Shown: one piece after another, positions 48,001 to 51,000 of the stretch
How positions within the stretch are numbered: the stretch's first letter is position 1
Layout: every line of letters starts with the position of its first letter
Assembly: GCF_003334785.1 (NCBI RefSeq)
Contig: NZ_QOWV01000005.1
DNA: 64,000 nt
Origin: Escherichia coli
GTDB taxonomy: Bacteria; Pseudomonadota; Gammaproteobacteria; Enterobacterales; Enterobacteriaceae
Direction: 5' to 3' (one strand)
Position numbers: made by a program

Positions 48001-51000
48001 CATCAATTGTATCTTCTGTTACATTAAAATGGCAGCCATTAATTTCCGCAACAGTCTTGTAATCCTTGAAAAATGGCTTCGGTTGATTATTATTCCATAG
48101 CCAATATGCAGAATATGCGCCTATGACAAATGCGCTCAACATAATTAGATGACTTTTTATATGTTTGAGGATTTTGTTATTGAAATTCTTTGCGCCACCA
48201 ATGCTCTCTTTGTATCCCGCATTAACTTTTATGGCAGGTGGGGCATTGTGTGTATGTGCGTCTGTTGACGAGTTTATTACATGATTTTGTATGTTAATGT
48301 CATTATGGATCTTGAATCCTCTTCTCGGCACGGTTGCAATTAGCGAGTGGGTAGTATCACCAACAGCGCGAAATCCGCGTCTGATAATGGATATGTTCTG
48401 ATATAACGTGTTAGTAGGCACACGCATACCTTCTTCTTCCCAGACTCTGGTGAAAAAATCTTGTTGTGCAACCACATCAGGAAAAGCTTCAAGTAGAAGT
48501 GATAAACATCGACTGGCTGGCGTTGTCAGAACGACGTTAAGATCGGCGTTATGTACCGATATTAATTTTCGGTGCTCAGGCCAGAACTCGATATTATCGT
48601 TAATAATCCAGTACATACGTCAATAAACACTAAATCAATCGAAATGGAGATCACATAGTTTGCTAAGTATATTGGTATTTACGGCATAAATATATATTAA
48701 TTTTATATTTATCATGATGATTGAAATGAGGCTTTAATGTTGCAACGTAAAACTTTACGTAAATTAACATGGTTAACATTTATGCCACTATTGTTTGTAA
48801 ATTCATATTTCGTAATGCTTCTGAATTTTTCGTGTGATGGTTTTAAATACTATGGTGTTTACTCTTGAGGGGACGGCCTATTTATAAAATACGGACATTT
48901 CAATAAATGCCCGTATAAACAGAGTATGATTCTGGCTGGTCGTTGAGTATCAATGTTGGACCGAATGTGAACGAATAAATAATTCGTTTATTTTACCACC
49001 CATTCTCTTTTCGATTCGTTGCTTGTACGCGTAGATGCTACGGATATCCATATCCAGAACTTCAGCAATCTGATATGGATTATAACCAGAAACCATATAC
49101 CCCATTATGGTGAATTCCATCTGAGTTAATGTGTTACCTCTGGTAAATGATAAATAACGACCAATAAATAGTTGTCTGATCTTTTCATTGGCAACATCAA
49201 GACCATCATCATTATATATGACAGCAGATATTGCTGAGTTGTGTTTTCGCCAGTAATTAGCTAACGATTGCATATTGCGGTCGCTGACTAAAACAATCCC
49301 CATGTCAGTACTTGCAAGATAGTCAATCCAGTCTTTTTCAAGGAATAGACGTAAAAAACTTACTGAAAAATCGACAAAAATATATCCGCTTAATCTCGCA
49401 TTGTGGTTTTTTGTTAAGATACCTTCTACCACACCACGATTAAAATATGAACTTTCTTCGGGCCACATACAAAAACACGAGTTTGCGCAATACTGCAAAC
49501 GCGGTGACTCTTCTGGCATTATTTGGCAATGCATTGAGCAACTATTGCATGTAAGACTTTTATAACGACTACAAAGCCCCATGTTAAGAACCTCCCTATC
49601 CGTATATAATTGCATAATTTCATTGGTTATTGATGATGTCAATACACCATGATTTTGTAATTTTGCCGGGAAAAATTGCGATTAATCTGTATTTGCTATA
49701 ATTCTGAGTAAGGCATTTAAAAATGCATTTCTCGTTATCAAATATGATTATGTTTCACTGATTTAATCTTGCATGGTTGAGAGCGGTCCAGATAACTATC
49801 TCATGGTATAAGAATATCTATATCGCAAATTGTTTTTGAATGACCAGAAGATATCTTGCGAATCTAAGTTATGCATCTTAAATAGTCTTATTTAAGATGT
49901 TCAGATCTCTTTGTGTGTTTAACTAACTGATAATACTAGGATATGACGAGAGAAGTGATAGGGTGGAATAATAACAAATGAATATTATGAAAAATGGAAT
50001 GGTTCAAAATTGTAGCAATTTTGAACCATCCACAACTGATATTAGCTAAAGAACATTACCGATACGCACAGGATACCCACGATCAGCGTAATCAGATTTC
50101 CGATGGAACGCCAGGGTTTAAGCGCCGGGATGAGATACGTTGACAGCGTAGGCATGATGAAAAGTATCATGGCAATGAGCGGGCCGCTGATCGCGTAAAT
50201 CATCGAAATCGCGTTCGGGTTAATGCAACAAACAATGAAGGTAATCAGCGATACCAACATAATTGATAGTGCGCGGTTAAATGCACGACTTTTCTTTACA
50301 CCAACCTGCTGTAGTGTTGTTTTGACGACCTCTGTGGCACCTTCAATAACGCCAAAGTACGTACCCAGGAATGATTTCGACATCGCAACTACTGCGACAA
50401 TAATCCCGGAAATTGACAACCATGCTGGGGCGTTCGGCAGCATAGAAAGCGCCGATAAAATGGTGACCCCTTCTTCTTTAGCAGCTTCAATATACGAAGG
50501 TGGAATAGAAAGCAGGCAGCTAAAGACAAAGAACAGTACACTTATGCAGATGATGAGATAAGCGACTTTCATAATTTTTTTGCATTTATCCATAGCGTGT
50601 TCGCCATATTTTTCACGTCTGTCTATGGCAAACGTAGAAATAATGGGCGTATGGCTAAAGGCGAAAACCATCACGGGAATCGATATCCATATCTGGTGAA
50701 GGGTATTCTGATTGAACTCTACCTGGGTTGTTAATAGATCAGGTTGCCAACTACCGACAAGGTAAATGGAAAGAAATAAGAAATAGGCAATCAATGGGAA
50801 TACCAAAAATCCCATTACCCGAATAGTGGCATGACGTCCCATCAGAAAAATGAGATTCAGAATTAATACAACACCCAGACTCACCAACATACGGATGCGA
50901 AGATCAATAACCATATGCTTTGCCAGCTGTTCCGTAAGTGAGTTGGTAATTGCCACTGCATATATCAACACGACGACAAAAAAGGCGATGAAGTACAGCG

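Follow-up and report, generated by a model that had tools for sequence, protein, structure and literature searches.

A cross-genus conserved palindrome upstream of yqeH as a candidate control site at the edge of the Escherichia coli ETT2 island

The ETT2 regulators YqeH, YqeI, YgeH and YgeK influence how avian and extraintestinal E. coli move, form biofilms and cause disease, and no cis-element controlling them has been described in the literature searched. In the E. coli K-12 window (the whole 64-kb stretch of DNA that was analysed, to which all positions refer) yqeH opens a cluster of regulator genes, yqeH-yqeI-yqeJ, which occupies the end of ETT2 nearest yqeG. A 459-bp spacer of 31% GC (49583–50041), bounded by the yqeG stop and the yqeH start, lies between the two genes, both of which are on the minus strand. 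The spacer forms the edge of the AT-rich island on the yqeG side, where the GC content falls from about 0.45 to 0.30 at about 50000–50040, and the region is within a chromosomal hairpin domain silenced by H-NS/StpA (PMC12460168). An earlier sequence-only reading noticed two structures in this spacer, a palindrome and a terminator, and proposed that the spacer is probably the island boundary and could carry a regulator binding site or a small RNA. The question is what the palindrome is: a control site, an RNA element, an architectural feature, a scar of island integration, or nothing of consequence.

The palindrome and the terminator in the spacer

Both structures were confirmed, the palindrome (element A) as a perfect 11-4-11 inverted repeat and the terminator with its 14-bp stem (Table 1). 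The arms of element A, CATCTTAAATA (49874–49884) and TATTTAAGATG (49889–49899), are 100% complementary across a 4-nt spacer, and the conserved block around them reaches 49872–49900. Element A, at MG1655 2987219–2987244, lies 292–317 bp upstream of the yqeH ATG, and its centre precedes the predicted start of yqeH transcription by ~280 bp. Perfect inverted repeats with a stem of at least 11 bp and a loop of at most 8 nt were counted in 20,000 dinucleotide shuffles of the spacer; 0.004 are expected per shuffled spacer, and only 0.3% of the shuffles held one or more. In the whole window, 0.24 are expected after block shuffling, and 10 overlapping registers (7 distinct loci) were observed. Of 5426 E. 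coli genomes, 5348 have a single copy of element A, 4018 of them an exact one. A dispersed repeat (REP/BIME, ERIC or MITE) was rejected because the element occupies exactly one place per genome in those 5348. Of the only three copies of the 8-mer TCTTAAAT in the 64 kb, two are in the palindrome and the third is upstream of ygeH. TAAGA/TCTTA half-sites, three of which are within the palindrome, are enriched in the spacer (5 vs 1.9 expected, p 0.048).

Table 1. Features in and near the yqeG/yqeH spacer (window positions; a full stop marks features listed without a strand)
Feature	Position	Strand	Basis
Element A, perfect 11-4-11 palindrome CATCTTAAATA-GTCT-TATTTAAGATG	49874–49899	.	Read directly; inverted-repeat search
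Element B, ATTCTGAGTAAGGCATTTAAAAATGC, diverged inverted copy of element A	49701–49726	+	Inverted-repeat search; matrix scan
Element C, AATAAGGCTATTTCAGAT	45180–45197	-	16/18 positions equal to element A core
Conserved block TTTGCGATATAGATATTCTTA (yqeH-sense), with a TAAGA/TCTTA half-site	49809–49829	-	Alignment-free footprint against 6 taxa; alignments
Predicted yqeH sigma-70-type promoter, TTGACA-17-AATTAT with TG	49614–49642	-	Promoter scan
Predicted HusR (YnfL) box CGCAAGATATCTTCTG, holding the 10-bp palindrome AAGATATCTT	49845–49860	-	PMC12844172 Table 1
IHF core match TATCAGTTAGTTA to consensus WATCARNNNNTTR, exact, single	49920–49932	-	Pattern scan of the spacer
Breakpoint cluster, island-side edge of element A	49862–49876	.	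Junction reads across genomes
Second IS1 junction site, next to element B (2 bp from its edge)	49698–49699	.	Both IS1 orientations, 31 genomes
yqeG intrinsic terminator	49997–50031	-	Stem scan; dG -20.9 kcal/mol; Term-seq
C-rich, G-poor tract, rut-like	49937–49996	-	yqeG-sense transcript, just after the terminator

The terminator is a textbook intrinsic one. Its arms (49999–50012 and 50016–50029) form 14 perfect pairs, or 16 with G-U, around a 3-nt loop, and the tail CATTTTTCAT supplies a U-run at 49996–49987. Term-seq 3' ends at MG1655 2987127/8, equivalent to 49991/49990 of the window, have been mapped within this U-run (PMC7815308 supplementary file 1), so that stable stem-loop, U-tract and mapped end are all present. 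A stem is retained in other Escherichia and in enterobacterium L085. Unlike the terminator (-20.9 kcal/mol), the palindrome would fold as an RNA hairpin of -9.0 kcal/mol on either strand with only 2 of its 11 pairs G-C. It was rejected as an intrinsic terminator: the stem is not G+C-rich, the terminator scan is silent on it and neither strand has a U-tract, the plus strand continuing with TTCAGATCTC and the minus strand with CATAACTTAG.

The sequence-only reading would have been refuted by a lack of transcription or protein binding in this interval, but both have been reported, namely a Term-seq 3' end and a Rho-termination region (PMC7815308) and the binding of HusR and sigma-S RNA polymerase to the spacer in vitro (PMC12844172, PMC5493296). 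The sigma-S holoenzyme gSELEX peak falls at about the position of the yqeH promoter, the coordinate conversion (~1977 bp) being approximate only (PMC5493296). A yqeH Shine-Dalgarno sequence, GGGAGG, is present at about 49592–49597, and the -35, -10 and Shine-Dalgarno blocks are conserved across genera.

Conservation of the sequence and the RNA-level alternatives

The sequence of element A persists in E. albertii, in cryptic Escherichia clades, in Citrobacter and in L085. An alignment-free footprint of the spacer against six other taxa returned four conserved blocks only: element A, one other block, the -35 and the -10/Shine-Dalgarno; in Citrobacter and L085 the other block contains TTCCTGG. 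Within Escherichia, a 24-bp core is nearly invariant, with flanks that are ~72% identical or unalignable, and the non-palindromic centre TAAGA is invariant in the element A orthologues. Perfect dyad symmetry is found in E. coli only; it is degraded in other genera, and pairing is lost outside Escherichia. In Citrobacter a yqeI-like gene stands between yqeG and the element, which there lies in a divergent region upstream of yqeH; the element therefore accompanies yqeH, not the 3' end of yqeG. At yqeG loci without a detectable yqeH homologue there was no convincing copy, only two 4-mismatch matches that were taken as chance. The full element was also not found upstream of YqeH homologues of 50–60% identity in other genomic contexts; one yqeH-like gene of this kind, 60% identical, does have an exact arm 10-mer at -262.

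Compensatory change was examined in 8 orthologues across the 11 pairs. Of these cells 75% were paired and 25% unpaired, and one pair had changed on both sides; no covariation was detected in the palindrome, 244 of 500 shuffles scoring equally high. Fold energies of element A in L085 and Citrobacter are the same as those of shuffles, whereas in Escherichia the hairpin is kept, with energies between -6.7 and -10.1 kcal/mol where shuffles give about -2. Since pairing is lost outside Escherichia and covariation is missing, the palindrome is not an RNA-structure element. It is a real and non-random feature, and what has been conserved between genera is the DNA sequence, not an RNA hairpin.

Two RNA-level explanations were weighed against this background. 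According to the first, which is unlikely, transcripts reading through the terminator would load Rho on the C-rich, G-poor tract and end around the palindrome, whose hairpin would pause transcription, fix the 3' end, or both; the AU-rich stem-loop would stop 3'-5' exonucleases, and silent yqeH/ETT2 would be insulated from yqeG transcription. The published Rho score maximum at MG1655 2987246 (+), or window 49872, is 2 nt past the hairpin (PMC7815308 supplementary file 2), although it derives from 800-nt windows, so that the coordinate is coarse. Without BCM the read counts are 85 (upstream) and 26 (downstream); with BCM they are 79 and 104 (score 4.3, p 1.9e-8; PMC7815308). In view of that maximum, an RNA 3'-end role is kept as the main rival. 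The tract just upstream of the palindrome has a C/G ratio of ~6 and 13 YC dinucleotides per 60 nt, and the orthologous tracts after the terminator in other Escherichia and L085 look C-rich and G-poor by eye. Rho-dependent 3' ends typically lie directly downstream of stem-loops without a U-tract (PMC6061677), and the palindrome resembles these protected transcripts in being such a stem-loop in a published Rho-termination region; that its hairpin is retained within Escherichia also speaks for this explanation. It differs from them in that its stem is weak, does not covary and does not keep its pairing beyond Escherichia, and in that the C-rich tract precedes the stem-loop, whereas rut sites follow the protective stem-loop according to Dar and Sorek. 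Moreover, none of the 3' ends in the curated Term-seq list falls at the palindrome (PMC7815308), and the sequence persists both in taxa that have lost the pairing and in Citrobacter, where it does not follow yqeG. Nothing is listed for the palindrome interval in the SMRT-Cappable-seq and ROSE supplements. The second explanation, that the palindrome is part of a small RNA gene or another independent transcript, was also put forward in the sequence-only reading; it is not supported and is scarcely credible. The element is structured and sits in a long AT-rich intergenic region which some transcription crosses, but Rfam gives no match at E <= 1 on either strand of 48500–51500, no promoter-like site is aimed at the palindrome, neither strand has a terminator-like tail, covariation is missing as noted, and the MG1655 RefSeq record annotates no RNA gene in the spacer.

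Deletions and IS1 junctions at the island edge

The proposed island boundary held in part. The spacer is indeed the yqeG-side edge of ETT2, as the drop in GC indicates, and in about 1300 ETT2-less genomes the homology to the K-12 spacer begins 2–9 bp from the palindrome. The apparent boundary at that point is a cluster of independent breakpoints and not an integration junction. It comprises the ETT2 deletion junction of phylogroup B2 at about 49867/8 and five distinct IS1 junctions, at 49862/3, 49865/6, 49871/2 (twice, with opposite IS1 ends) and 49875/6; in other genera the palindrome keeps to the island side, together with yqeH. No IS1 junction was found at the yqeG/yqeH locus at the control positions 49790 and 49935. 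The survey used five junction-specific queried positions and detects only junctions near those, so that the strength of any hot spot is uncalibrated. A 10-nt identity, ATGTTCAGAT, is shared by the palindrome flank and the IS1 terminal region and is possibly due to chance (estimated p ~0.07).

Three further explanations of the palindrome were considered. The palindrome could be read as the attachment or integration scar of ETT2, either the att site at the distal end of a tRNA-glyU island or the core site of a recombinase, since recombinase core sites typically have dyad symmetry and the ETT2-less genomes regain homology so close to it. The comparative data already contradict this, and its probability is very low indeed. 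The whole palindrome is on one side of the junction; the last 16–20 nt of glyU are not matched in the spacer at <=4–6 mismatches; and the dif-like 28-bp consensus, which is 11-6-11 where the palindrome is 11-4-11, has no match at <=9 mismatches. The ETT2-less lineages Nissle/B2 and MOD1-EC7003 have different junctions (~49867 and ~49821), which identifies them as deletions, and in strain EC16 another island replaces everything up to about 49990. Because yqeH is beside the element in E. albertii, the cryptic clades, Citrobacter and L085, the arrangement is ancestral. It is also very improbable that the palindrome has no function and arose by chance or hitch-hiking in AT-rich DNA. Low-complexity AT-rich DNA does yield short palindromes, and perfect symmetry is confined to E. 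coli, but the shuffled expectation per spacer is far below one and the element is kept in genera where the surrounding DNA is unalignable.

A possible, though doubtful, explanation is an architectural DNA site where the silenced domain ends: the AT-rich palindrome would either melt readily or tend to form a cruciform, or else bind a nucleoid protein (IHF, Fis, H-NS/StpA), and the attraction of IS1 would be the main visible consequence. The five distinct IS1 junctions and the B2 deletion end lie within 15 bp of the palindrome edge, the second IS1 site adjoins element B and the two controls are empty; element A has an exact IHF core match 21 bp away, outside the palindrome, and the region is inside the H-NS/StpA domain (PMC12460168). 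It has been reported that IS1 and IS5 prefer destabilised (SIDD) sites upstream of H-NS-silenced promoters (PMC11043490), and that the major IS1 hot spot of pBR322 is a binding site for IHF (Gamas et al. 1987, as cited in PMC11043490). The hot spots at bgl and flhDC are similarly AT-rich, upstream of a silent promoter and hit by repeated independent IS1 junctions in both orientations (PMC11043490). They span ~200 bp, however, whereas the junctions in the yqeH spacer are within a few bp of two related elements, are the ends of IS1-associated island deletions and are not known to have an activation phenotype. Against an architectural role, ~24 bp of base-specific conservation across genera, the non-palindromic centre included, exceeds what nucleoid proteins or melting usually need; the high-affinity H-NS motif TCGATAAATT has no match in the spacer at <=2 mismatches; and the IS1 survey is limited to the neighbourhood of its queried positions. 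About 0.1 IHF core matches are estimated per spacer by chance, and the match is therefore suggestive only.

A candidate operator and its relatives

Most likely, to judge from its cross-genus sequence footprint upstream of yqeH, the palindrome is a protein-binding control site for this first regulator gene of the decayed ETT2 island, so that the regulator binding site is the part of the sequence-only reading that is favoured. A more specific version, a far-upstream operator for a dimeric helix-turn-helix regulator, possibly the EcpR/MatA paralogue YqeH with or without RcsB, is given about an even chance. From its position far upstream of the yqeH promoter, the palindrome would act as an operator or an upstream activating site, and a dimeric helix-turn-helix protein would read the two ATCTTAAATA arms and the TAAGAC centre. 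The likeliest factor would be of the LuxR/GerE type, with YqeH itself, possibly paired with RcsB, as the leading candidate, and it might act at a distance against H-NS/StpA silencing as EcpR does at its own promoter. We infer the binding of a protein, the identity of that protein and the direction of regulation from these sequence comparisons. YqeH has an EcpR_N (Pfam) and a GerE domain, is 26% identical to MatA in the alignment, and carries a basic residue in its GerE-type recognition helix at the position of RcsB K180. Several points speak against an operator: a distance of ~280 bp from the promoter is unusually far for a simple activator or repressor; symmetry that degrades outside E. coli is odd for the site of a symmetric dimer; YqeH homologues of 50–60% identity in other contexts lack the full element; and the box assigned to HusR is a neighbouring site and not the palindrome. 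HusR binds the yqeG/yqeH spacer in vitro according to an EMSA statement, and yqeH is not on the published list of HusR-activated genes (PMC12844172); the predicted HusR box is 13 bp from element A.

Related sites were found in the same spacer and upstream of a second regulator. Element B, ~150 bp downstream of element A and ~95–120 bp upstream of the predicted yqeH start, is complementary to 49871–49890 over 20 nt (75%), and its O157 allele scores 16.6 bits with the yqeH-element matrix, for which shuffles give 0.23 matches per 35 kb. Element C is 156–173 bp upstream of the ATG of ygeH, which encodes a HilA-like regulator, with copies of TTCTTAAAT and CATCTTAAAA at about 45264–45290; it corresponds to MG1655 2991921–2991938, and both its position and its sequence are conserved in Escherichia sp. 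E1V33, whose ygeH is 62% identical. Both elements were found post hoc, with modest statistics. With one near the yqeH promoter and the other upstream of ygeH, a single factor may coordinate the regulators of the island. A broader proposal, rather improbable, is that elements A, B and C represent a hitherto undescribed 'ETT2 box', protein-bound and/or structurally unusual, which controls yqeH and ygeH and, by way of that structure or protein, steers the intramolecular transposition of IS1 to its edges. If this is true, one element both regulates the island and drives its repeated deletion in E. coli lineages.

As an element the candidate operator is of an ordinary kind in an expected place and would not surprise a specialist. 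Conserved and precisely delimited, it and its two related sites provide a handle on what switches on the H-NS-silenced ETT2. In addition, the boundary that emerges when ETT2-less strains are compared is a point at which deletions and IS1 breaks recur, not the place of integration, and this bears on the mutational attrition of ETT2.

Known systems close to the candidate operator include those of RcsB and EcpR. Consensus sequences of the ToxR type (TNAAA-N5-TNAAA) and of FNR, CRP, Lrp and Fis were compared by eye, and none fitted convincingly. The RcsB/RcsA-RcsB box (TaAGaatatTCctA; TN(G/A)GAN4TC(T/C)NA) has TAAGA/TCTTA half-sites in common with the palindrome, but their spacing and orientation in the palindrome do not fit, and no match to TN(G/A)GA-N4-TC(T/C)NA was found on either strand of the spacer, which has isolated TAAGA half-sites only. 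EcpR is said to bind TTCCT boxes, and the K-12 spacer has none. Because both the canonical RcsB box and the TTCCT box are missing from the spacer, the EcpR/RcsB analogy is by resemblance only. The ecp/mat boxes also differ from the palindrome in being two direct boxes, and YqeH and MatA in having no more than the identity given above. The ecpR upstream region gives no score with the yqeH-element matrix, a single decamer being the sole shared stretch. This decamer, TAAGACTATT, is at the palindrome centre and in the ecpR/matA upstream region, where it stands within TAAGACTATTCCTA followed by TTCCT-N17-TTCCT; the TAAGACTATTCCTA context fits the published RcsB box, and GerE-type partners of RcsB, MatA included, use composite sites (PMC7913699, PMC3950696). 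Overall, the yqeH spacer and the distal boxes of the EcpR (MatA) ecp/mat system are alike in having an element far upstream of the promoter of an EcpR_N and GerE regulator in H-NS-silenced DNA, in the decamer that they share, and in the IHF core match near the palindrome, EcpR acting with IHF against H-NS.

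Conservation of the palindrome and its assignment to yqeH

The spacer from the yqeG stop to the yqeH start comprises 459 bp with 31% GC and is 100% identical to E. coli K-12, the window running in reverse relative to MG1655 (MG1655 positions equal 3037118 minus the window position, a conversion verified on the RefSeq gene table). The literature places ETT2 beside glyU (PMC11068852), and the glyU-yqeG interval is the K-12 remnant of this type III secretion island. The two structures described in the sequence-only reading, an inverted repeat (the palindrome) and a 14-bp-stem hairpin downstream of yqeG (the large hairpin), were both found exactly as claimed. 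The palindrome arms are 11 nt each, 100% complementary and 4 nt apart. A dinucleotide-shuffled spacer is expected to contain 0.004 perfect inverted repeats of this size, and a block-shuffled window 0.24. Seven distinct loci with perfect inverted repeats were observed in the window vs 0.24 hits (counted as registers) expected per shuffled window; four further repeats of at least 11 bp include the 24-bp palindrome ATCCGGCCTGAATTCAGGCCGGAT. Directly downstream of ygeG, the ygeG-ygeH spacer carries a perfect 11-bp inverted repeat, TGGTTATAGTG-N8-CACTATAACCA, which can be lengthened to about 13 bp, lacks an obvious T-run and does not occur in the E1V33 lineage, itself without ygeG.

Coordinates of features in the window
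Feature	Position	Strand	Remark
Four further perfect inverted repeats	26246-26269, 36956-36984, 43211-43240, 56361-56387
tRNA-Gly(CCC) gene glyU	31187-31260
Element C	45180-45197		site upstream of ygeH
ygeG-ygeH inverted repeat	45302-45331
yqeH	48950-49582	minus	LuxR-type regulator; then yqeI, yqeJ
yqeG/yqeH spacer	49583-50041
Element B	49701-49726		diverged inverted copy of palindrome; ~95-120 bp upstream of predicted yqeH start
TTTGCGATATAGATATTCTTA block	49809-49829		footprint block
Predicted HusR box CGCAAGATATCTTCTG	49845-49860		13 bp from palindrome (PMC12844172)
Palindrome block	49872-49900		footprint block
Palindrome arms	49874-49884, 49889-49899
yqeG-side palindrome flank	49895-49909		AAGATGTTCAGATCT
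Exact IHF core match	49920-49932		only one
C-rich, G-poor yqeG-sense RNA	49937-49996		directly upstream of palindrome hairpin
Large hairpin	49997-50031	minus
yqeG	50042-51271	minus	amino-acid permease

A 42-nt query centred on the palindrome had one and only one match in each of 5348 of 5426 complete genomes, and a REP-like or MITE-like repeat is ruled out because of this single copy per genome. The match is identical in 4018 of these genomes, despite the 1-5% divergence of most genomes from K-12 over a 501-bp region (963 at 99% identity or more, 3129 in the 95-99% band and 1279 at 90-95%). In the Escherichia-lineage alignment, the 24-bp core ATCTTAA(A/T)TAAGA(C/A)(T/C)ATTTAAGAT is almost invariant, with flanks of about 72% identity or unalignable. 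An alignment-free footprint that compares the K-12 spacer with six further yqeH upstream regions marks only four kinds of block, namely the palindrome, TTTGCGATATAGATATTCTTA, the -35 region and the -10/Shine-Dalgarno region.

The letters are conserved rather than the pairing. Among eight orthologues, 25% of the pair cells are unpaired, only one pair has changed on both sides, and every measure of RNA-structure conservation is equalled by about half of the shuffles. The fold energy ranges from -6.7 to -10.1 kcal/mol within Escherichia and equals that of shuffled sequence in Citrobacter and in L085, an enterobacterial locus outside Escherichia, with the letters still conserved. The invariant columns take in the non-palindromic centre (TAA.TAAGA..ATTT). 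Such a pattern is the signature of a DNA site that would be read by a protein, and the perfect dyad symmetry appears to be a trait of the E. coli branch. In Citrobacter a yqeI-like gene separates the element from yqeG and the element lies in a divergent region upstream of yqeH, which assigns it to yqeH rather than to the 3' end of yqeG. Among yqeG loci with no detectable yqeH homologue, only two 4-mismatch matches were found, taken as chance. This additional yqeI-like gene, of the ToxR type and in some cases accompanied by a yqeJ-like gene, occurs in C. amalonaticus, C. sedlakii and C. koseri (L010 7744-8481, L088 1085-2234) and runs divergently from yqeH, the element lying inside their shared control region.

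Transcript ends in the spacer and the operator reading

The large hairpin is the yqeG terminator. On the minus strand a T-run comes after its 14-nt perfect stem (16 pairs with G-U), the terminator scan accepted it, and hairpin and T-run are kept at the same spot in other Escherichia and one more distant enterobacterium. Term-seq 3' ends at MG1655 2987127/8 (+), window 49991/49990, fall within its U-run (PMC7815308 supplementary file 1). The same file lists an 'orphan' 3' end at window 48619 (MG1655 2988499, + strand), which lies between yqeH and yqeI, 3 nt before the yqeI start codon. Folded as RNA, the large hairpin reaches -20.9 kcal/mol and the palindrome a weak -9.0 kcal/mol, with 2 G-C pairs. 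The palindrome was rejected as a terminator (no U-tract on either strand, unreported by the terminator scan) and as a known RNA (no Rfam match at E <= 1, no MG1655 annotation there). The suggestion of a small RNA in the spacer found no support, Rfam being empty at this threshold and the promoter scan giving no promoter-like site aimed at the palindrome.

A regulator binding site, which had also been suggested for the spacer, is likely from the sequence conservation upstream of yqeH, and the palindrome is the candidate. It would serve the yqeH promoter as a conserved, operator-like DNA element from far upstream, and related elements lie at yqeH and ygeH. We rate the chance that the palindrome is a regulatory site bound by protein as about even; any named protein as its binder is much less probable. 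The main rival is that the palindrome hairpin may mark the end of yqeG read-through transcripts through Rho. In a Rho-termination region, the maximum Rho score lies at MG1655 2987246 (+), window 49872, 2 nt beyond the hairpin, and with bicyclomycin the downstream reads rise from 26 to 104 (PMC7815308 supplementary file 2). The RNA directly upstream has a C-rich, G-poor composition, and Rho-dependent 3' ends typically lie right after stem-loops without U-tracts (PMC6061677). However, the score comes from windows of 800 nt, the curated Term-seq ends include none at the palindrome, its stem is weak and pairing is not the conserved property. The operator role and the RNA 3'-end role are compatible, not mutually exclusive.

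The island edge and IS1 junctions

The spacer had been called the probable island boundary, which is right only superficially. A compositional edge does lie at the yqeG 3' end (~50000-50040), and the palindrome is on its AT-rich side, about 100-170 bp in. In about 1300 genomes the match starts only at window 49868-49872 and continues to the right. In a derivative of Nissle 1917 (phylogroup B2), glyU is followed without interruption by 150 bp of spacer, the palindrome and yqeG, the junction falling by alignment at ~49867/8, 6 bp from the palindrome. This is not an ancestral empty site. Escherichia sp. MOD1-EC7003 also lacks ETT2 and has its junction 48 bp further in, at ~49821; a repeat of the glyU 3' end is absent from the spacer; and strain EC16 carries another island, with an integrase, in place of everything up to ~49990. 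Moreover, yqeH adjoins the element in E. albertii, two divergent Escherichia lineages, three Citrobacter species and another enterobacterium (YqeH 69% identical), so the yqeG-element-yqeH order is older than E. coli. Since the two ETT2-less lineages have unlike junctions and remnants, the 'empty' glyU-yqeG sites are independent deletions. The glyU-proximal flank remnants also differ between the Nissle derivative (L001 5858-6010) and MOD1-EC7003 (L005 7400-7517). The EC16 island (L003 1186-6060) spans about 5 kb of the glyU-yqeG interval; a gene for a tyrosine recombinase and a number of hypothetical genes stand there in place of ETT2 and the palindrome.

Junction-specific searches gave five different IS1 junctions in 11 genomes, at 49862/3, 49865/6, 49871/2 (twice, opposite IS1 ends) and 49875/6; the B2 junction falls within the same 15 bp. 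The far side of IS1 is unlike in each (truncated eprH, truncated ygeQ, glyU-proximal DNA or another IS1). A second site, 49698/9, occurs in 31 genomes, 2 bp from the element B edge, with both IS1 orientations in the two junctions read. All these junctions accompany partial or complete ETT2 loss. At 49790 and 49935 the same kind of query gave no junction at this locus; the searches detect only junctions near queried positions, 49700 is not a blind control and hot-spot strength is uncalibrated. The pattern suggests IS1-mediated adjacent deletions, repeatedly targeted at the palindrome and element B. The junctions resemble reported preferences of IS1/IS5 for destabilised sites upstream of H-NS-silenced promoters, plus an IHF-bound hot spot (PMC11043490). 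The yqeG-side palindrome flank has the 10-mer ATGTTCAGAT in common with the IS1 sub-terminal region (L002 5960-5975), which may be chance (estimated p ~0.07) or tied to IS1 target choice.

Related sites and comparison with known regulators

Within 3 mismatches of the 18-nt core, the 64-kb window and the complete 35-kb O157 ETT2 hold only one other site, AATAAGGCTATTTCAGAT, 156-173 bp upstream of ygeH, which encodes a HilA-like regulator. The same site lies 147-164 bp upstream of a 62%-identical ygeH in Escherichia sp. E1V33, where the gene context is different. TTCTTAAAT and CATCTTAAAA also occur upstream of ygeH, and the three occurrences of the 8-mer TCTTAAAT in the window are two in the palindrome and one upstream of ygeH. 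A yqeH-like gene with 60% identity, in unrelated context, has the exact arm 10-mer at -262. These related-site statistics are post hoc and modest; TAAGA half-sites in the spacer are mildly enriched (5 vs 1.9 expected, p 0.048). In O157:H7, a 26-nt sequence between the ygeF pseudogene and ygeG (ATCCTAATTATGACATTTCAAAATGC, L090 5688-5713) is 22/26 like element B and scores 15.3 bits with the yqeH-element matrix; it has no counterpart within 6 mismatches in the K-12 window.

On the yqeG/yqeH spacer, HusR (YnfL) has been reported to produce a peak in gSELEX and a shift in EMSA, with a predicted box near the palindrome; yqeH is not in that paper's list of HusR-activated genes (PMC12844172). A sigma-S RNA polymerase gSELEX peak (PMC5493296) falls about the yqeH promoter by an approximate, unconfirmed ~1977 bp coordinate conversion. 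The yqeG-ygeL segment as a whole folds into a repressive chromosomal hairpin that depends on H-NS/StpA (PMC12460168).

YqeH has a Pfam EcpR_N domain, a weak GerE match and 26% identity to MatA/EcpR. The YqeH recognition helix can be aligned with its counterparts in MatA and RcsB and carries Arg where RcsB has K180, a residue reported to read the AGA motif (PMC7913699); RcsB is known to have MatA as a partner (PMC3950696). Upstream of ecpR lies TAAGACTATTCCTA, then TTCCT-N17-TTCCT; TAAGACTATTCCTA agrees with the published RcsB box and has TAAGACTATT in common with the palindrome centre. Martinez-Santos et al. reportedly found in 2012 that EcpR, together with IHF and in opposition to H-NS, acts from distal TTCCT boxes to activate its own promoter. 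Unlike the ecp/EcpR system with its distal TTCCT boxes, the yqeH spacer has neither a TTCCT box nor an RcsB box, so the palindrome is not a member of the EcpR or RcsB operator classes. The likeness to EcpR and RcsB may be taken as a functional analogy only, and the palindrome adds a new case to a familiar class of elements.
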